A model generated the notes under the pieces. That model did no database searches, was not told the DNA's origin, and worked only from the letters and a program-made list of their open reading frames with translations. From the NCBI GenBank assembly GCA_963704725.1, contig OY969934.1, positions 2,592,001 to 2,656,000 on the forward strand: a DNA stretch of 64,000 nucleotides. The letters are read 5' to 3'. This stretch comes from an uncultured Actinomycetes bacterium. GTDB lineage: Bacteria; Actinomycetota; UBA4738; HRBIN12. Numbering within the stretch: the stretch's first letter is position 1; every line of letters starts with the position of its first letter. The position numbers were made by a program, and so were the translations under genes. Below, piece after piece: positions 1-27,347 of the stretch.

Positions 1-732
1 GATGGGCTGGGCCGGGGGTGACGATCCCAGGCTCACCAGCCGGAACTCGTCCTGCCACTGGAGCCAGTAGCCGCCGGGCGGCCAGGCGAAGTAGATGTCG
101 CGATACACGCCGTCGACCCGCACATTGATCTCGGACGCGCGAGCGCCGTCCCCGCTCAGGAGATGGACTTCATCACCAGGCCTGACCCCGAGCTCGTTTG
201 CGATCAGCTCAGGAAGCCAGACGCCGTCGCCGTCGACCCCGGAGAGGCGCTCGACATGAGCGAGCACGCCGGGCGATGCGAACAACCGGCCCGCCTGTGT
301 TCCCGCTCGTCCCTCGAACGACAGGGCGACAGGGTCACCCAGCACTGCAGCGAGCGGGCCTCCCAGTACAGGACTTCCCGAAGCAAGCCGGCCGAAGGCG
401 TCGTTCAACTCGCGGACTGCGGGCGTTTGAAGCCCGTCATTCACACGAACCGGATCGAGCGGAAGGCTCTTGAACGTGTAGGTCAGGCCGGCCAGGTACC
501 GCGTGATGTTCGGCCGATCGATCGCTCCCCTGATCAGATCGCTGGAGGTCGCCGACAAGAACAGCGGGTAAGCCGCCGCCGCCAGCACAAGGAGTAGCGC
601 CCCCGCCACAGCGGCGGCAAACAGCGCTGGATACCTAAGCTGCACGAACGGGGCCCGCCGCCAGATCGCACCCTTCCGGCGAGGCGGACGCCGGACGCGG
701 GCCTGCGAACGGGCGGCTGCGGCCCCGCTCAC
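1..732 (-). CDS. FtsX/MacB-like ABC transporter permease, N-terminal part (truncated by window edge)
   Basis: Missing from the ORF track because no stop falls in the window. Read manually from GTG 732: VSGAAAARSQ...WRRAPFVQLRYPALFAAAVAGALLLVLAAAAYPLFLSATSS...GVWLPELIANELGVRPGDEV...VRVDGVYRD. One N-terminal TM, and the 'A..LGV.PGD.V...V.GVY' pattern typical of FtsX-family extracellular domains. Confidence 0.65.
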   Translation of the reverse strand, partial: MSGAAAARSQARVRRPPRRKGAIWRRAPFVQLRYPALFAAAVAGALLLVLAAAAYPLFLSATSSDLIRGAIDRPNITRYLAGLTYTFKSLPLDPVRVNDGLQTPAVRELNDAFGRLASGSPVLGGPLAAVLGDPVALSFEGRAGTQAGRLFASPGVLAHVERLSGVDGDGVWLPELIANELGVRPGDEVHLLSGDGARASEINVRVDGVYRDIYFAWPPGGYWLQWQDEFRLVSLGSSPPAQPI

Positions 733-955
733 TGCAGCCGATCTCTCAAAGGGCTATGAAGGCCAGTCCCAGGGTACTGACACGTACCCCTTCGATGGCC
801 GACGTGTGTCGGTTCTCGGCACAGGCCACCTGAGGTCAGGTCGCGCCGAGGCCCCCCAACTCGGCGCGGAGACACGCCCCAGGCGGACAGCCACGTCAGG
901 CCGACCCCGTGGACCCTGGCCACCACGAAGTCCAAGAGGGCCACTCGTGGGCTGA

Positions 956-1207
956 TCAGCAGGGGACCGTGAAACACTGCCCCACATTGGTGTTGCAGAT
1001 GCAGCCCGGATTACACCCCGTGCACGTGTATGCGACGGTGCCGCCAGAACAGCTCTTGCAGCTCGATCGGCAACACGTCGTGGCAGCCTGAGCGGGCACC
1101 GCCTGCGACAAGATGCCAAGTCCAGCCCCCACCGCCGCGATTCTCCCTGCGAGGCGAAGGAACCGCCTGCGACTTGGTGACGCGACGCCATCGTCATCTG
1201 CGGCCAC
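956..1207 (-). CDS. Tat-signal, cysteine-rich secreted peptide precursor (83 aa; predicted 42-aa mature peptide with 10 Cys)
   Basis: Strong RBS AAGGGAGGT before GTG 1207. SRRRFLR twin-arginine motif, hydrophobic stretch, AQA|A cleavage site. Mature sequence ATTCCRSSCKSCSGGTVAYTCTGCNPGCICNTNVGQCFTVPC. Confidence 0.85.
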   Translation of the reverse strand: MAADDDGVASPSRRRFLRLAGRIAAVGAGLGILSQAVPAQAATTCCRSSCKSCSGGTVAYTCTGCNPGCICNTNVGQCFTVPC

Positions 1208-1233
1208 GATCGACACCTCCCTTCCTGCTCCGA

Positions 1234-1833
1234 TCACGTGAGGGCCCGCACGTCGTCGCCTCCGATCTTCACCTCCTCTCCGAAGGCCACACCGACAAGC
1301 CGGGCCAGTTCCGACACGGTGTTCGGGAATCCCTTGCTGGCAACCATGCCCCCTCGATCAAAGACAAAGGCATGAGGTGTCGATGACGTCTCGAGGGCTC
1401 GTGAAACATCTCCGTCATCCTGATAGAGGACTACGGCGCCCGTCCGCTGGAGCAGCGCTTCGTCTGTTTCGGCAAGATGGCCCTCTGAAACGACAAACGT
1501 GGAGATGGGGAGACCATCCGCGTCGGTTGACTGGATCTCCCCGATGAGCTGTTTGCACGGCCCGCAGGAGGGATCAACAAGCAAGAGAACGCCGCGCTGC
1601 GCTAGCATTCTTGAACTCTCGAAACGCCTTCCCTGCCGGTCGCGGACGCTGAACCTCGCAATTCGGCTCCCAACGGATATGCCACCAGCTGCGGATGCGG
1701 CGCTGCCTTTGATGAGCCTCTCTGCCGCCTCAAGAAGCTGAACGCTCCGGCGGAGGACGCCCGCAGTGACGAAGGCGTTCAGGCAAGTGACCAGCGCAAG
1801 GAGTGCGAACGCGACGATCCACGGCCAACTCAT
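1234..1833 (-). CDS. MauD/TlpA-like membrane-anchored thioredoxin-fold protein
   Basis: ATG 1833 overlaps the upstream stop (ATGA), RBS GGAGG. N-terminal TM, VDPSCGPCKQL (CxxC) and TPHAF cis-Pro loop. Confidence 0.8.
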   Translation of the reverse strand: MSWPWIVAFALLALVTCLNAFVTAGVLRRSVQLLEAAERLIKGSAASAAGGISVGSRIARFSVRDRQGRRFESSRMLAQRGVLLLVDPSCGPCKQLIGEIQSTDADGLPISTFVVSEGHLAETDEALLQRTGAVVLYQDDGDVSRALETSSTPHAFVFDRGGMVASKGFPNTVSELARLVGVAFGEEVKIGGDDVRALT

Positions 1834-2414
1834 GACGCCTCCAATCCCTGCGAACTCCTGGCCCGGCGGTGGGCGCTCAAGAACGCGCCGGTCGCCAAGG
1901 CGAGCCGCCACAGGCAGATCGTCAAGAGTCCGGACAGAGCGACGCCCAGGAAGTCGGTGCCGGGAAGAGCCTCCCCGGCTGGACTCCGAAGTGGGGCCCA
2001 AAGCCCCACGTCGTTACGGGTGGCGAACACGGCAATCGCCGCAGCAAGTGCAATCAAGCCGAGGTTTCGACTGACGGTCCACCAGCTGATCAACCTTGAA
2101 GAATCACCGAAGCAGCCGCAGGGAACCCTCTCGCCCCGACGGAGGACGATCACGACCGCACCCGTGAAGCCCAGGAGAATAGTCGTGGTCAGCACCGCCA
2201 CCCATGGGACCGCGGCCCCCAGCAGCAGTCCGAAGCCCAGGAAGACTTCGGAAGCCGCGACGGCGAGCGCTACCCCGGGAACGACTCTGGCCGGGACGAG
2301 CCGATATCGCCAGACCGCCTCGCGGTACGAGGCGCGGTCCAGCAGCTTGATGGCGCCCCCGGCCACCAGGAGGCCGCCGAGGACCAAACGACCTGCGAGC
2401 AGGAAGCCTTGCAT
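1830..2414 (-). CDS. MauE/DoxX family redox-associated membrane protein
   Basis: RLVLGGLLVAGGAIKL start, several TM segments, and the PCGCFG...VSRN motif characteristic of MauE. Confidence 0.85.
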   Translation of the reverse strand: MQGFLLAGRLVLGGLLVAGGAIKLLDRASYREAVWRYRLVPARVVPGVALAVAASEVFLGFGLLLGAAVPWVAVLTTTILLGFTGAVVIVLRRGERVPCGCFGDSSRLISWWTVSRNLGLIALAAAIAVFATRNDVGLWAPLRSPAGEALPGTDFLGVALSGLLTICLWRLALATGAFLSAHRRARSSQGLEAS

Positions 2415-3344
2415 GCTCCCCCACCGCGACGTACGAAGTGCCGATGAGGGTTGCACACCTGAGCATCGAGGCGCAACCCACTCATTCGACCTACGTCGGG
2501 CCCAGGCCGCCCGCCTGAGCAAGACCCGGCACCCTCCGGGTTAGGCAGTCGGCTCTGTCTCCACAGAATCTCCCCCTTGTCCCCGCCCGGCGACACGCCT
2601 CCTCGTCGACTCGCCGTGCTGCCGGTCCGAACAATCCGGTTAAGGGCCACGGTCCCCACCCCAGTCCCCCCGCGCTTGCCGAGACTCCACGATTTCTCAC
2701 CCCCTCGAGAGACGGTCCTCGCCTTAGCTCCAGGCACGAAGGGGGACTCGATGGGGAGTGAATGGGGAGTCGGACCCGACAACATCGGCTCGACAACCGA
2801 AGAGGTCTCGGCGATCCACTGGTTCGCCGCGAGCAGGCTCCGAAGGCGACGGCACGCTCGCCACCGGCGGTCGGTTCGGGCAGATGAGCGGAGATGCGCG
2901 GCAGCACCGGCGCGACGGTCAGGGACGCGAGCCGGACGAGCGAGCATACGGCCCCGAACCCGGGCACCTCATGGCGAGGCGCGCTCGAAGAAGACGGAGG
3001 CCGGACGAACGCTCGGACGGCGAGCGGACGGACCGGAGCACCCGGTGGGCCCGTGGAGGTCCGCGGAGTGATGCCCGCGCCGGATGCCGAACGGCGAGCT
3101 CGGCCGGCGGCTGAGGAAGCGTGCACGGCGGCGATGAAGGAGGTGAGCACGGGCACGAACTGGAGATCCGTCGACCTGACGGTGAGTGCGCTTGCGCCCT
3201 GGCGCGGCGTCGCGCTTCCCCATAGCCGTGGAAACGGCGCGTGGGCGGCGCGACGGCGCCGGGTGCGGGAGCGCAAAAGGCCAGGTCACGGGGCCTCTTT
3301 GCCGAAGGCCACCCACCGAAGGAGGGGGGAGCTGTGCCCAGAAT

Positions 3345-4331
3345 ATGGTTCGAGCAGAACGAAACGACCTTCACCGCGTGGTCTCGCTCGATGAACGAGA
3401 CCACGCGATCTTCCTCAGCCTGCTCGAGCACAAGGTCCTCACCACCTACCAGATCAAGAACCTCTACTTCCGCTCCTTCAGACGAGCCCAGCACCGGATG
3501 AAGGAACTGAGAGATCTTGATCTGGTCTCATCGTTTCAGGTGGGGAGGGGTTTCGGGGAGGGGAGGCCGCCAGCGTGCTGGTACCTCACCAAGCCCGGCC
3601 TCGTCGAGATCGCCGACGCCAAGGACGTCCGGGTCTCCGACCTGCCCTGGGTCCCCGATCACAGCTACCGGACGAACAAGATCCTTGCCCACCGCCTCGG
3701 GGTCAACGCGTTCTTCTGCGCCCTCGCCGAGGCCTCCAGAGCCCACGAGGGTCACTGTCTCGTCACCTGGCGGCCCGAACACTGGGTCCGCACCAGGGCC
3801 GCGGAGGTCAAGCCGGACGGGTTCGGGCGGTACCTGCACCCGGGCGGCGCTTGCGAGTTCTACCTGGAGTACGACCGGGGCACCGAGGCGTTCGGCGCGC
3901 TGTCGCGAAAGCTCGCGGGCTACCTCCGGCTCGCGGCGGGGTGGACGAAGGAGCAGGAGCTTCCGGGCCTTCCGAACCTCCTCATCATCGTCCCGGAGGG
4001 GGTGCGCGAGGGGGAGGTCGGCTCGGCCTTCCGTCACGCCACCGGGAGCCTGCACGTCTCGGGCCCGCTCGCGACCTCGTTCCCGCTGTACGTGGCGAGC
4101 GAGGACGTCCTCACTGAGCTCGGCGTGCTCGGGGCCGTGTGGAAGCACCTGCCCACCGACGGCGATCGCCTCTTGCTCCTCGACCTGCCGGCCCAGCCCC
4201 GCGACCTCCACCAGTCCGCTCGATGCCTCGGCCGGCACTTCACAGACGCTGACGCCGGCCAGCGTCGTCGGATCTCCCCTGTCTCGACCACACCCCGATT
4301 CCGCGCCCTGCCGCCCCGACATGCCCCTTGA
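3345..4331 (+). CDS. Replication-relaxation family protein
   Basis: DERDHAI..LEHKVLTTYQI wHTH-like start, HRLGVNAFF, and VKPDGFG...FYLEYDRGTE..KLAGY (PD-(D/E)xK-like) motifs. Confidence 0.85.
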   Translation: MVRAERNDLHRVVSLDERDHAIFLSLLEHKVLTTYQIKNLYFRSFRRAQHRMKELRDLDLVSSFQVGRGFGEGRPPACWYLTKPGLVEIADAKDVRVSDLPWVPDHSYRTNKILAHRLGVNAFFCALAEASRAHEGHCLVTWRPEHWVRTRAAEVKPDGFGRYLHPGGACEFYLEYDRGTEAFGALSRKLAGYLRLAAGWTKEQELPGLPNLLIIVPEGVREGEVGSAFRHATGSLHVSGPLATSFPLYVASEDVLTELGVLGAVWKHLPTDGDRLLLLDLPAQPRDLHQSARCLGRHFTDADAGQRRRISPVSTTPRFRALPPRHAP

Positions 4332-4573
4332 CCCCGCGCCGCGCGAATGCGCGCGGGCTCGAGGACGACCACGATCGCCGTCGCGACGGGATCACCCCGG
4401 CATCGGCCGACGAGCACGACGCCCCGGGAGCGACACCTGCCCGGACTACGCTTGCGCGTTCGGCGACGGGACGGCCGGAGCCACCCAAGCCAGGAGCTCT
4501 TCGACCCTTGGCCCGAGCCCTGGTCGACCTGGCACTGGCACTGGATCACGAGAACGAGGAGGACGAGCGATGA
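4328..4573 (+). CDS. Small hypothetical protein coupled to both neighbouring genes
   Basis: TTGA overlap with the relaxase stop and ATGA overlap with the recombinase start. C-terminal amphipathic helix LARALVDLALAL. Confidence 0.4.
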   Translation: MTPRRANARGLEDDHDRRRDGITPASADEHDAPGATPARTTLARSATGRPEPPKPGALRPLARALVDLALALDHENEEDER

Positions 4574-6150
4574 ACGCGGTGATCTACCTCCGGGTCTCGA
4601 CCAAGGAGCAGGCCTCCAACGACGAGGCCGGCGAGGGGTACTCGATCCCGGCCCAGCGGGAGGGGTGCCTTCGCCACATCGCCGAGCGAGGGTGGAGCCT
4701 CGCCGGGGAGTTCACCGACGCCGGCGAGTCGGCCCGCACCGCCGACCGTCCGCAGCTGAAGGCCATGCTCCGCCGAGTGGCCGAGGGCGGGATCGGAGCC
4801 GTCGTCGTCCACAAGATCGATCGGCTGGCCCGCTCGATGGAGGACCACGTGGCCATCAGGGCGGCGCTGCGTCACGCGGGGGTCCAGCTGGTGTCCGTGA
4901 CCGAGAACATCGAGGAGACGGCCTCTGGGCGCCTCGTGGAGGGCATCCACGCGCTCATGGCCGAGTTCTACTCGGCCAACCTGGCCGGTGAGATCCGAAA
5001 GGGCATGACCCAGAAGGCCAAGATGGGCGGCTGGCCTACCAAGGCACCGATCGGCTACCTGAACGTCCGGGAGAAGACGGCCGGCAAGGACATCGCCAAG
5101 GTGATCCTCGACCCCGAGCGAGCCCTGCTCGTCCGAGAGACGTTCCGGCTGTACGCCACAGGCGACTACTCGCTTCCCGAGCTGCAGGCGGTGATGCACT
5201 CCAAGGGGCTGACGTCCCCGTACGCGAGGAGGCCGGGCGCTCCGGTCTCGATCTCCAAGCTCGCCGAGCTCCTGGCGAACCCCTTCTACCTCGGGGTCGT
5301 GCAGTGGGGAGGCGCCCGGTATCCCGGCCAGCACAAGGCGCTCATCCCCCAGAGCCTGTTCGACCGGGTCCAGGAGACTCTGCGGGCTCGCGACGTCGCC
5401 GGGGTTCGCCAGCGGCGCCACGAGCACTACCTGAAGGGGCTGCTGCACTGCGGGGAGTGCGGGAGGCGCCTGTCGCTCACGCTCGCCAAGGGCAAGTACC
5501 TCTACTTCTACTGCCTGGGCCAGCGAGGGACCGCGCGCACCGGATGCCGCCAGCCGTACATCCTGGCCGGGGACGCAGAAGCGCTCGTGGAGGACCTGTA
5601 CGAGAGGATCCAGCTTCCGCCCTCCTGGGTGAGCCGGCTCACCGAGGAGCTGGAGGCCGAGATCGTCGAGCGGCAGGCCGAGGCCTCGGAACGCCGGGTC
5701 CTCCTCACGAAGACGCTCGCCAAGGCGGCCGATGAGCGCGGCAAGCTCCTGCAGGCTTTCTACGCGAACGCGATCCCGCTCGATCTGTTGAAGACGGAGC
5801 AGGACCGCATCGGCATCGCCGAACACGCCGCCAAGGACGAGCTCCAGTCGGCGGAGGGCGACCTCGAGGGCTGGCAGGACGTGCTGGGGACCGCCATCCG
5901 GCTCGCCGGTAACTGCCACGCTGCCTATCTGAAGGCGCGACCCTCGGTGCGACGACGCTTCAACGACGCCGTACTCGAGGCCGTCTACATCAAGGATCGC
6001 AAGATCGGCCGGGCGGAGTTCTCTGAGGTCTTCGCGCCTGTCTTCTCTCGGCCGAGTTCGAATAAGGCACTGAAAGTGGAGGCGGGGGGAATCGAACCCC
6101 CGTCCTCGGGCGTCCACTCGGGTCTTCTCCGGGCGCAGCCGGCGGGTTGA
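4570..6150 (+). CDS. Large serine recombinase (integrase)
   Basis: RBS GAGGAGG. YLRVST catalytic motif, KIDRLARS, recombinase domain, zinc ribbon LLHCGECG...YFYC...C, and coiled coil. Confidence 0.95.
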   Translation: MNAVIYLRVSTKEQASNDEAGEGYSIPAQREGCLRHIAERGWSLAGEFTDAGESARTADRPQLKAMLRRVAEGGIGAVVVHKIDRLARSMEDHVAIRAALRHAGVQLVSVTENIEETASGRLVEGIHALMAEFYSANLAGEIRKGMTQKAKMGGWPTKAPIGYLNVREKTAGKDIAKVILDPERALLVRETFRLYATGDYSLPELQAVMHSKGLTSPYARRPGAPVSISKLAELLANPFYLGVVQWGGARYPGQHKALIPQSLFDRVQETLRARDVAGVRQRRHEHYLKGLLHCGECGRRLSLTLAKGKYLYFYCLGQRGTARTGCRQPYILAGDAEALVEDLYERIQLPPSWVSRLTEELEAEIVERQAEASERRVLLTKTLAKAADERGKLLQAFYANAIPLDLLKTEQDRIGIAEHAAKDELQSAEGDLEGWQDVLGTAIRLAGNCHAAYLKARPSVRRRFNDAVLEAVYIKDRKIGRAEFSEVFAPVFSRPSSNKALKVEAGGIEPPSSGVHSGLLRAQPAG

Positions 6151-6426
6151 TCTCACCTCGAGGCTCCCGCCGGCGGAGCACCTCTCGGCCAGCCCGGGTG
6201 CGATGTCCGGCGGCGGCCCCCGGGCGGAACCGTCTCCGTAAGCCTGCTCACGACGCCCGACCCCGAGTCGCAGGCGGACCTGGGCGGACGGCTGCCTAAC
6301 TCAGTTAGGCGGCGAGCGCGTAGTTATCGGCGCTTGTGTTGATCCCGGCTTTTCACGAGGCATCCGGGGACCTCGGCCCGCTTCCCCCGAGCGGTTCATC
6401 GCTCGAGTCGAAGCCAGTACACCCCC
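6077..6426 (-). ncRNA. ssrA: tmRNA
   Basis: 5' GGGGGTGTACTGGCTTCGAC and 3' GGGGGTTCGATTCCCCCCGCCTCCA form an Ala acceptor stem with G3:U70 and a T-arm. Internal tag ORF present; gene lies directly downstream of smpB. Confidence 0.95.
6305..6331 (-). other. tmRNA proteolysis tag reading frame (A)ADNYALAA*
   Basis: GCC GAT AAC TAC GCG CTC GCC GCC TAA, ending in the canonical YALAA. Confidence 0.85.
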
Positions 6427-27108: not shown

Positions 27109-27347
27109 GGGCTCGCGTCCGGCTGACCTGGTCTTTGCCCCCACACCCGCCTGCCGGGGTGATCGACGGTCATCGACCGGCTTCGCACCCTCTCCCGGCG
27201 AGGTCGCCCCCGCCGAGGCAGGACTGACATCTAAACCGCGCCATGCTCACCGACCAACTGTCGGCTTACGTGGGTCGCTTCGCCCGCGGCTGGCCTCGAC
27301 TACCGGGGAGCGATTCCCCGGGCAACCACAGACCCGGACGCGAGCCC
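27109..27347 (-). ncRNA. raiA motif structured RNA
   Basis: Closing stem GGGCTCGCGTCCGG/CCGGACGCGAGCCC. Internal blocks GGTCTGTGGTTG, AGTCGAGGCCAG, CCCACGTAAG, GAGCATGGCGCGGTTTAGATGTCAGTCCTGCC and GTGTGGGGCAAAGACCAGGTCAG match the raiA motif as I recall it. Lies between comF and raiA. Confidence 0.88.

Follow-up and report, generated by a model that had tools for sequence, protein, structure and literature searches.

A four-gene cassette at the left end of the DNA stretch analyzed here encodes a small cysteine-rich peptide together with what appears to be its own pair of redox proteins. The stretch, called the window below, comprises 64,000 nucleotides (nt) of contig OY969934.1 (GenBank assembly GCA_963704725.1; G000:C1:2592001-2656000, where G000 denotes the source genome), from a 3.45-Mb, 95%-complete genome of an uncultured Actinomycetes bacterium. 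The cassette comprises genes for a MauE-family membrane protein, a MauD-like thioredoxin-fold protein, a precursor of 83 amino acids (aa) with a twin-arginine translocation (Tat) signal and a predicted mature part containing 10 Cys residues, and an FtsX-type permease of the ATP-binding cassette (ABC) kind. Judged from its conservation, the small open reading frame (ORF) is a genuine gene, belonging to a family so far without a name, and the cassette is likewise real and recurs in other uncultured bacteria. We consider it moderately probable that the cassette is a dedicated oxidative-folding module, in which a secreted five-disulfide peptide has its own MauE/MauD pair and serves as a competition factor with ABC-mediated self-protection. 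The genes of the cassette and the parts of the precursor gene are as follows.

1830-2414 (-), putative MauE-family membrane thiol oxidase, ATG start, 194 aa (Pfam PF07291)
1234-1833 (-), MauD-like membrane-anchored thioredoxin-fold protein, 199 aa, CGPC motif, below the TIGR02661 cutoff
1214-1225 (-), Shine-Dalgarno-like box GGAAGGGAGGTG, read from the sequence, 6 nt before the precursor GTG
956-1207 (-), peptide precursor, GTG start, 83 aa
1085-1207 (-), predicted Tat signal peptide, precursor residues 1-41, with SRRRFLR, a hydrophobic core, and an AQA site
956-1084 (-), mature 10-Cys domain plus stop codon, 42 aa, predicted four-stranded beta mini-protein
1-732 (-), FtsX-type ABC permease, N-terminal 244 aa in the window, GTG start at 732

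The product of the first gene matched Pfam PF07291 with 93.7 bits (E 1.4e-26; cutoff, 27) and with 95 bits in the genome search. Hydropathy gave five hydrophobic segments, and the CGC of its VPCGCFG motif (residues 99 to 101) lies in the loop between segments 3 and 4; C99, G100, and C101 were invariant in all six aligned sequences, i.e., this MauE and its cassette orthologues. The second gene is coupled to the first through an ATGA, its ATG (1833-1831) overlapping the MauE TGA (1832-1830). Its product unites a membrane anchor, a CxxC thioredoxin fold, and adjacency to mauE: an uncharged N terminus (MSWPW) is followed by one transmembrane helix and then by an invariant RR, and residues M1, P4, W5, R28, R29, C90, P92, and C93 were invariant in a nine-sequence alignment. 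The protein also gave a weak Pfam match to AhpC-TSA. Word-index searches with it returned 4 and 9 relatives, a named canonical MauD never being among them, and a complex prediction for the MauE and MauD-like proteins scored 0.01, a value that counts neither for nor against binding.

The stop codon of the MauD-like gene is followed after 26 nt by the Shine-Dalgarno-like box and, another 6 nt on, by the GTG start of the precursor. The precursor scored 18.3 bits against TIGR01409 (TAT_signal), passing the cutoff of 16.7, and TatC is present in the genome; with a recognizable signal and a Tat system at hand, it is a predicted Tat substrate. Cleavage would follow AQA under the AxA rule. The mature part carries Cys at positions 4, 5, 9, 12, 21, 24, 28, 30, 37, and 42, so that it ends in Cys, and contains no Trp. 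A preliminary description of this DNA, made from the letters and their ORFs, had listed four co-directional genes, the ATGA coupling, a strong ribosome-binding site, SRRRFLR, and a cleavage site between AQA and A; all of these are present, on the minus strand, and its account of the length, Cys positions, C-terminal Cys, and lack of Trp of the mature part agreed exactly with ours.

The only relative returned by a word-index protein search was P0001, which is 81% identical to the peptide and retains each of the 10 Cys. Among 294 genomes of the class, one further relative was found, in G256, which is 45% identical and lies within an identical four-gene order; it is also represented by the public cluster representative P0003. 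A family profile was built on these three sequences and scored against 1.84 billion cluster representatives, yielding 99 proteins at E <= 1e-3, 19 of them at E <= 1e-10. Nearly all (95 of 99) were shorter than 130 aa. The number of Cys residues was even in 90 of these 95 short members (10 in 53 members, 12 in 30, 14 in 4, 8 in two, and 4 in one); a CC doublet started the Cys-rich part in 89, an RR-type motif stood within the first 40 residues in 80, and the mature part contained Trp in 22. Among the longer matches, P0010 and P0066 are ORF calls that read a CxxC thioredoxin-like protein and the peptide in one frame, and P0006 (3637 aa) and P0081 (1173 aa) match the profile in repeated short stretches. 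Eight Cys were invariant in a 66-member alignment, and the C-terminal Cys was nearly so; the Cys at precursor residue 65 moved by one alignment column in some members. Within the Tat motif, R13 was invariant and F16 nearly invariant. Family members occurred in 6 of 401 sampled genomes of the phylum (the source genome included), in 2 of 294 genomes of the class, and, as a weak match in G810, in 1 of 401 genomes of the phylum of locus L007, described below. A metagenome contig scan with a 12-row subfamily alignment returned 3 loci, and two viral-contig scans returned no family member. Ten members that were looked up in their source collection were metagenome singletons or belonged to two-member clusters, without names, and a language-model atlas search led to unnamed clusters, with a PF02975 cluster only at rank 16 (score, 0.91; 133 shared features). 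Since the ORF is conserved with its 10 Cys in relatives and its neighbors are kept elsewhere, it appears to be more than a chance reading frame; conservation beside homologous gene pairs, which the preliminary description had set as a check, was thus borne out in other genomes, where the ORF is kept with MauE and/or MauD.

No Pfam or NCBIfam model covers the Cys-rich part, and what similarity there was, weak and below the cutoff, was to Cys-repeat proteins only (TIGR04117, E 7e-4). A PDB sequence profile search gave no match for this part (best E, 0.37). AlphaFold2, run with the 66-member alignment, predicted a mature domain of four short strands with a predicted local distance difference test score (pLDDT) of 88-91 over residues 41-80. 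For this model, Foldseek against PDB returned nothing at E <= 1e-3 and the best Z score in a wide VIA structural search was 3.2. These null searches do not prove the fold new, and they give no support to the label "defensin/knottin-like" that had been attached to the peptide. Three other identities were considered and rejected: a ferredoxin or HiPIP (no family match and the wrong Cys spacing), a lipoprotein (no lipobox), and a radical S-adenosylmethionine (SAM) or lanthipeptide type of ribosomally synthesized and posttranslationally modified peptide (RiPP), for which no such enzyme was found in any cassette examined.

Nine loci holding a family member, a small sample, were available for a comparison of gene order. 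Among the genomes used, those that are unpublished are G256 (synteny, and rows in alignments A1, A4, A5, and A6), G431 (its locus), and G810 (its match). The neighborhoods are as follows.

G000, MauE, MauD, peptide, FtsX permease
G256, MauE, MauD, peptide, 913-aa FtsX permease, no adjoining ATPase
G491, MauE, peptide, 932-aa permease, 233-aa ABC ATPase, with the contig end just upstream of MauE
G461, TetR (divergent), MauE, MauD region as two ORFs, peptide, 953-aa permease, 279-aa ATPase, second peptide paralogue
G407, MauD, peptide (the contig begins inside the region), then branched-chain amino-acid transporter genes
L036 (metagenome), ATPase (divergent), then peptide, 925-aa permease, MauE, MauD
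L038 (1.1 kb), MauD, peptide
L037 (3.5 kb), peptide, with only a short MauE-like fragment on the opposite strand
G431, weak match, adjoining TatA, MauE and MauD absent

MauE and/or MauD adjoin the peptide in seven of the nine loci (G000, G256, G491, G461, G407, L036, and L038). An FtsX-type permease adjoins it in five, and beside three of those five permeases (G491, G461, and L036) there is an ATPase of the MacB/LolD/FtsE/DevA kind. The order of genes in L036 (peptide-permease-MauE-MauD) differs from that of the other cassettes, which suggests a functional link beyond a single inherited operon. In G461, one peptide gene precedes the permease (L031:7803-8057, minus strand) and its paralogue follows the ATPase (L031:11741-12115, minus strand); the division of the MauD region into two ORFs may be a frameshift. 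Regulators stand beside two cassettes, PadR in G256 and TetR in G461. Phage-tail-like domains (Tail_P2_I and DUF6519) were also seen in genes that precede the cassette in G256 (L022:473-5894, plus strand) and may belong to a contractile injection system locus.

These neighborhoods bear out the proposal of the preliminary description that the client of the pair is a Cys-rich mini-protein with a Tat signal instead of methylamine dehydrogenase. PF02975, the model for the MauA light chain, matched 0 of 66 family members at E <= 0.1 and did not match the G000 peptide at E <= 1. CCP_MauG was not found in the G000 genome, while the control genomes gave matches, and the 16 kb to the left of the window contain no mau gene, in agreement with the absence of mauG noted earlier. 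Searches of the genome with PF06433 (heavy chain of methylamine dehydrogenase) and PF02975 (light chain) were empty, yet the controls also gave no matches. A Cys-rich protein of loci L011-L013 belongs to no NCBIfam family, and a MauA-like identity for it is not maintained.

The permease was characterized over its whole ORF, which encodes 923 aa (L005:13961-16732, minus strand) and extends to the left of the window as far as genome position 2589961. Its FtsX match was 23.7 bits in hmmscan, below the cutoff of 25.5, and 29 bits, above the cutoff, in a six-frame genome search. Hydropathy gave 10 hydrophobic segments and two large outside domains, a double-FtsX layout. Between the stop codon of the peptide gene and the permease start is a gap of 223 nt, in which no terminator-like site was found and whose predicted folding is not unusual (z = -1.44). 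The permeases of G256, G491, G461, and L036 form a lineage with 45-52% mutual identity over their full length, a single outside domain of ~570 aa, and FtsX matches of 48.8-84.1 bits in two stretches; no MacB_PCD match was found in this lineage, and a structure prediction of the ~570-aa domain from a 4-row alignment was unusable (mean pLDDT, 42). The relatives of the G000 permease lie instead on its own chromosome: two paralogues align with it end to end at 55-56% identity and have a native GC content at third codon positions (GC3) of 0.91, compared with ~0.78 for the island permease. Each paralogue is followed by a tandem ABC ATPase of ~460 aa with two ATPase domains in one chain; a single-chain tandem ATPase is an unusual partner for a double-FtsX permease (L034:3644-8012 and L035:3914-8138). 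About nine ORFs of the genome carry an FtsX domain, so few that an FtsX-type gene as a random downstream neighbor is, by our estimate, expected in well under 1% of cases, and we therefore read the adjacency as non-orthologous replacement, not chance. Going by its sequence, the G000 permease is a non-orthologous stand-in without an ATPase of its own, and it may work with the ATPase of a paralogue or may be inactive.

We propose the following mechanism. The 83-aa precursor would be targeted to the Tat translocase, and its signal would be cut off after AQA. The 42-aa 10-Cys domain would be oxidized by the cassette MauD-like thioredoxin-fold protein through its CGPC motif, and the MauD-like protein would in turn be reoxidized by the cassette MauE through its CGC motif, with electrons passed to quinone, in parallel with DsbA/DsbB. 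The FtsX-type ABC permease would protect the producer from the peptide or push the peptide away from the membrane, and the peptide itself would be a bacteriocin-like competition factor. The electron path is suggested by analogy with tested MauE homologues. According to a 2026 preprint, two of these replace DsbB in Escherichia coli in a manner that requires their CXC motif, which is located between helices 3 and 4, and the role of thioredoxin-fold intermediary is proposed there for MauD or DsbA (bioRxiv 10.64898/2026.03.05.709764). Since the cassette MauE has the same CGC in the same loop, the simplest reading is a private DsbB/DsbA-like pair for one client. The five disulfides, the cleavage site, and the roles of peptide and permease are likewise predictions; a competition role is suggested by the patchy, island-borne distribution of the family, the G461 paralogue, and the kind of transporter.

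Several observations weigh against this reading. The MauD-like protein aligns nearly full length with the equivalog NCBIfam model TIGR02661 (protein residues 13-180, model positions 12-175 of 189), but its score of 38.8 bits (E 6.2e-10) did not reach the cutoff of 188.6 and lies so far below it that we call the protein MauD-like, not MauD proper. Many antimicrobial peptides are cationic; the mature net charge of the short family members ranges from -6 to +7 (median, +1) and is not uniformly cationic. Neither Foldseek nor VIA found a fold relative that hints at an activity. Synteny support rests partly on one unpublished genome, G256; the weak G431 match (E 3.8e-7) has no adjoining MauE or MauD; and in G407 the genes 3' of the peptide are those of the branched-chain amino-acid transporter and no FtsX permease. 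In G000 itself, the permease had no BLASTP match at 1e-3 among the cassette-lineage permeases and has only the FtsX domain in common with them, and no ABC ATPase lies within 16 kb downstream of it, i.e., to the left of the window, where the preliminary description had expected one. Because of the unrelated lineage, the 223-nt gap, and the missing ATPase, the link between permease and peptide is weaker in G000 than elsewhere; the assignment of the permease to the FtsX type held, but its membership in the cassette lineage did not.

It is possible, though in our view not probable, that the G000 permease is a mere neighbor, the functional unit being MauE-MauD-peptide and the FtsX gene being island cargo or a decaying piece of a different transporter operon that was broken by the insertion-sequence debris close by. 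The gap, the foreign permease lineage, and the lack of an ATPase where both paralogues have one would all fit, as would the remnant of an IS3 transposase and the lowest-GC DNA found directly downstream of the permease. However, with ~9 FtsX ORFs in this genome and an FtsX gene beside the peptide in four other loci, chance is an unlikely explanation. In addition, the 923-aa reading frame is unbroken and is matched by its paralogues along the whole length, and the gap between it and the peptide gene lacks a terminator-like site. The nature of the peptide can also be read differently. FtsX-family proteins (FtsEX, LolCDE, and BceAB) often transmit force or signals and do not transport, and the peptide could be an extracellular signal or a structural component of the envelope, with the FtsX-type transporter as a Bce-like sensor or handler. 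The variable net charge, often neutral or negative, and the regulators beside some cassettes (TetR in G461 and PadR in G256) agree with such a role, but no histidine kinase stands beside any cassette examined, and the patchy distribution, carriage on an island, and two peptide paralogues in G461 fit competition genes better; we judge this role improbable. Less probable still, and in our opinion very unlikely, is a metal- or cluster-binding mini-protein (metallothionein-, chalkophore-, or iron-sulfur-like) that is loaded in the cytoplasm, with MauE/MauD keeping or resetting its thiols and the ABC system handling the metal complex. Cytoplasmic loading would explain the use of Tat, which classically exports cofactor proteins, and the Cys content (10 of 42 mature residues) and the TIGR04117 similarity point the same way. 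Against metal binding, genes for metal chaperones, metal transporters, and cluster assembly are absent from all cassettes examined; the even Cys count in 90 of 95 members is that expected for full pairing; AlphaFold gives a compact beta fold without a ligand; no ferredoxin or HiPIP family matched the peptide; and MauE acts as an oxidase where it has been tested (bioRxiv 10.64898/2026.03.05.709764). The competition factor with its private redox pair is our preferred reading.

A separate question is which side of the membrane this pair faces. Segments and Lys-plus-Arg residues were counted with an in-house hydropathy script. All nine cassette-type MauD proteins have an N terminus of the form M-[ST]-x-P-W without Lys or Arg, one transmembrane helix, and an invariant RR, and five of six further thioredoxin-only proteins (P0105-P0109) share this charge design; the sixth, P0110, has an uncharged N terminus and a single Arg after the helix. 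By the positive-inside rule, this pattern puts the thioredoxin domain inside. In MauE, the side that bears loop 1, the loop with CGC, and the C-terminal tail has 13 such residues versus 1 on the other side in G000 and 12 versus 1 in L036, which would put the CGC side inside as well; the predictions for MauD and MauE, which are independent, are thus concordant. In a MauE-thioredoxin fusion, P0111, two membrane segments lie between the CXC loop and the thioredoxin domain, which places both redox sites of this protein on one side. In contrast, a chromosomal MauE of G000 (3291623-3292162) has four segments and a positive N terminus, and its thioredoxin partner has 12 Lys plus Arg before the helix and 1 after it, the classical outward design. 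Both redox sites of the cassette pair may accordingly face the cytoplasm; the peptide would then acquire its disulfides and its fold there, at the membrane, before leaving through Tat in folded form, an arrangement that we put forward tentatively and consider somewhat unlikely. Folding before Tat export would explain why the signals are strictly kept as Tat and not Sec signals, the Tat motif being conserved across the family (R13 invariant and F16 nearly so). On the other side, the two tested MauE homologues act on periplasmic DsbA substrates, and TOPCONS puts their CXC loop in the periplasm (bioRxiv 10.64898/2026.03.05.709764). Moreover, a flipped core inside one family would be unusual, the conserved Arg residues by the CGC loop and after the MauD helix could be functional instead of topogenic, and the cytoplasm is reducing.

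Two further loci, L006:2294-4725 in a metagenome-assembled genome (MAG) of Gaiellales and L007:5998-8266 in a MAG of Chloroflexota, encode a MauE, a MauD-like protein, a membrane protein of ~205 aa, and a Cys/Trp-rich Tat-signal peptide; the L006 peptide has 14 Cys, and the family profile does not match peptides of this kind. Their MauD-like proteins have uncharged N termini and single Arg residues, with no RR, after the helix, which is in keeping with the charge design above. One could extend the idea to Mau-type MauE/MauD pairs generally, as a disulfide machine at the cytoplasmic face for very Cys-rich Tat clients; this generalization is doubtful, but it would explain the twin-arginine signals on the 10-Cys family, on the Trp-rich Cys peptides of L006 and L007, and on MauA.

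The cassette is carried on an integrative island at the gene for transfer-messenger RNA (tmRNA), as the preliminary description had supposed in calling it cargo of an integrative element. The GC content of the island is 61-68%, compared with 71-75% outside, and the low-GC stretch runs up to the tmRNA gene. The defining features in the window are as follows.

3186-4331 (+), Replication-relaxation family protein, island backbone (Pfam PF13814, E 7.1e-35)
4555-6150 (+), large serine recombinase, island integrase (Pfam Resolvase, Recombinase, and Zn_ribbon_recom)
6076-6426 (-), tmRNA gene (Rfam RF00023, 120.5 bits; ARAGORN)

The tmRNA gene is likely the integration site and the right border of the island. 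With its last base at 6150, the recombinase ORF reaches into the tmRNA gene at its 3' end, so that the island seems to supply or overlap this 3' end. Between the 3' region of the tmRNA gene and the adjoining 20 kb to the left, no shared direct repeat exceeds 11 nt, as may be expected given that a few common bases suffice for serine recombinases. By the drop in GC alone, the island was taken to start on the left near genome position 2585000. Downstream of the permease, the island also holds pairs of PIN and ribbon-helix-helix (RHH) genes, an IS3 remnant, and an HNH gene. The first interpretation of this DNA as a whole thus stands in part: the client of the redox pair and the island held up, the permease proved not to be the orthologue of the one found with the cassette elsewhere, and the defensin/knottin label gained no support. 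About 0.5 kb downstream of the permease we also observed a 151-aa ORF (L005:13023-13478, minus strand) with a Sec-type signal, 7 Cys, ~61% GC, and no Pfam or NCBIfam family. Beyond it (L005:12320-12915, minus strand), an ORF for the helix-turn-helix part of an IS3-type transposase is followed by a short ORF that ends like the C terminus of an island PIN protein; the two look like leftovers of rearrangement in the interval that separates the permease from the toxin-antitoxin genes. Elsewhere in the window, a raiA RNA motif lies at 27114-27342 (minus strand; Rfam RF03072, 141 bits). The DNA contigs of four sequencing runs, all from a single study, were 151-nt pieces with exact identity to portions of the region; they possibly stem from the source campaign and are silent on expression and mobility.

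The source organism, an actinobacterium, shows no signs of having an outer membrane: its genome has three WhiB genes, and no Omp85 was found in it although controls gave matches. VKOR was not found in the genome. Besides the island copy, there are two MauE genes elsewhere with thioredoxin partners. One is the four-segment MauE at 3291623-3292162 mentioned above, which adjoins a classical TlpA-like thioredoxin and looks like a generalist. The other belongs to a pair at G000:C1:153984-156234 (plus strand), in which a MauD-like thioredoxin is followed by a 380-aa protein with an extra multihelix domain fused before the MauE domain; this MauD-like protein has an uncharged N terminus, one helix, and then Arg, and no Cys-rich Tat client was found nearby. 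With two further MauE/thioredoxin pairs in the genome, the island pair appears to be an extra, dedicated copy. The locus L034, which holds one of the permease paralogues, also encodes a radical SAM protein with an inserted intein and a LAGLIDADG endonuclease (L034:8358-10850, plus strand; Pfam Radical_SAM, LAGLIDADG_3, and Intein_splicing).

If these proposals are right, MauE/MauD gain a client other than methylamine dehydrogenase, and the peptide family would offer a compact, very stable scaffold with variable loops, with potential in peptide engineering and perhaps as a source of antimicrobials. As a natural test case, the cassette further bears on whether disulfide-rich proteins are folded before Tat export and whether all members of the MauE oxidase family face one side of the membrane. 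Were the cytoplasmic-face arrangement true, the accepted picture of the maturation of methylamine dehydrogenase would have to be revised.

With regard to transport, the cassettes resemble type VII (MacB/FtsX/LolC/BceB) ABC systems in combining an FtsX permease that has large outside domains with an ATPase of the MacB/LolD/FtsE type (in G491, G461, and L036), and differ from them in that no adaptor or kinase gene lies beside the cassette permease and in layout, with a ~570-aa domain in the cassette lineage and a 10-segment double-FtsX protein in G000. Substrates in this class include the disulfide-bonded enterotoxin STII, which MacAB-TolC removes from the periplasm; modules of the Bce type confer protection from peptide antibiotics. 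Disulfide-rich bacteriocins offer a second parallel: halocin C8 is made as a Tat-signal preproprotein with 10 Cys, actifensin and laterosporulin are defensin-like, and all three, like the family described here, are small Cys-rich secreted peptides from accessory loci with ABC genes. However, no similarity of sequence or fold to them was detected, and the Cys spacing is unlike; we know of no such bacteriocin system with its own MauE/MauD pair.

The closest relatives of the redox pair are found in mau clusters. Canonical MauE is a five-helix protein, and Berks is said to have reported in 1996 that MauA carries a long twin-arginine leader; in the literature searched, no printed statement that MauA uses a Tat leader was found. 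As in our cassette, a mau cluster joins MauE and a membrane-anchored CxxC MauD, both of which are needed for a small Cys-rich exported client (PMC7794033; bioRxiv 10.64898/2026.03.05.709764). In contrast, the client here has 42 aa and no Trp and hence no tryptophan tryptophylquinone cofactor, no MauG was found in G000, the MauD-like protein is far below the TIGR02661 cutoff, and an ABC permease is part of the set. The generalist MauE proteins share with the cassette MauE the Pfam family, the CXC (CGC) motif between helices 3 and 4, and a presumed thioredoxin-fold intermediary and quinone acceptor, but have four helices and a periplasm-facing CXC and serve a whole secretome (bioRxiv 10.64898/2026.03.05.709764), whereas the cassette MauE has five segments, a charge bias of the opposite sense, and a single client. 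Close in concept is the decRiPPter study, a bioinformatic report: three candidate RiPP families from Streptomyces have mauE, one of them also mauD, with other mau genes absent and precursors containing at least 8 Cys, and modification of the precursor by MauE/MauD is what the authors propose (Kloosterman et al. 2020, PMC7794033). The principle that MauE/MauD act on a Cys-rich precursor is therefore already in print as a hypothesis; to it our analysis adds a delineated 10/12-Cys Tat family, a fold prediction without a known match, a recurrent FtsX/ABC partner, carriage on an island, and a topology signal.

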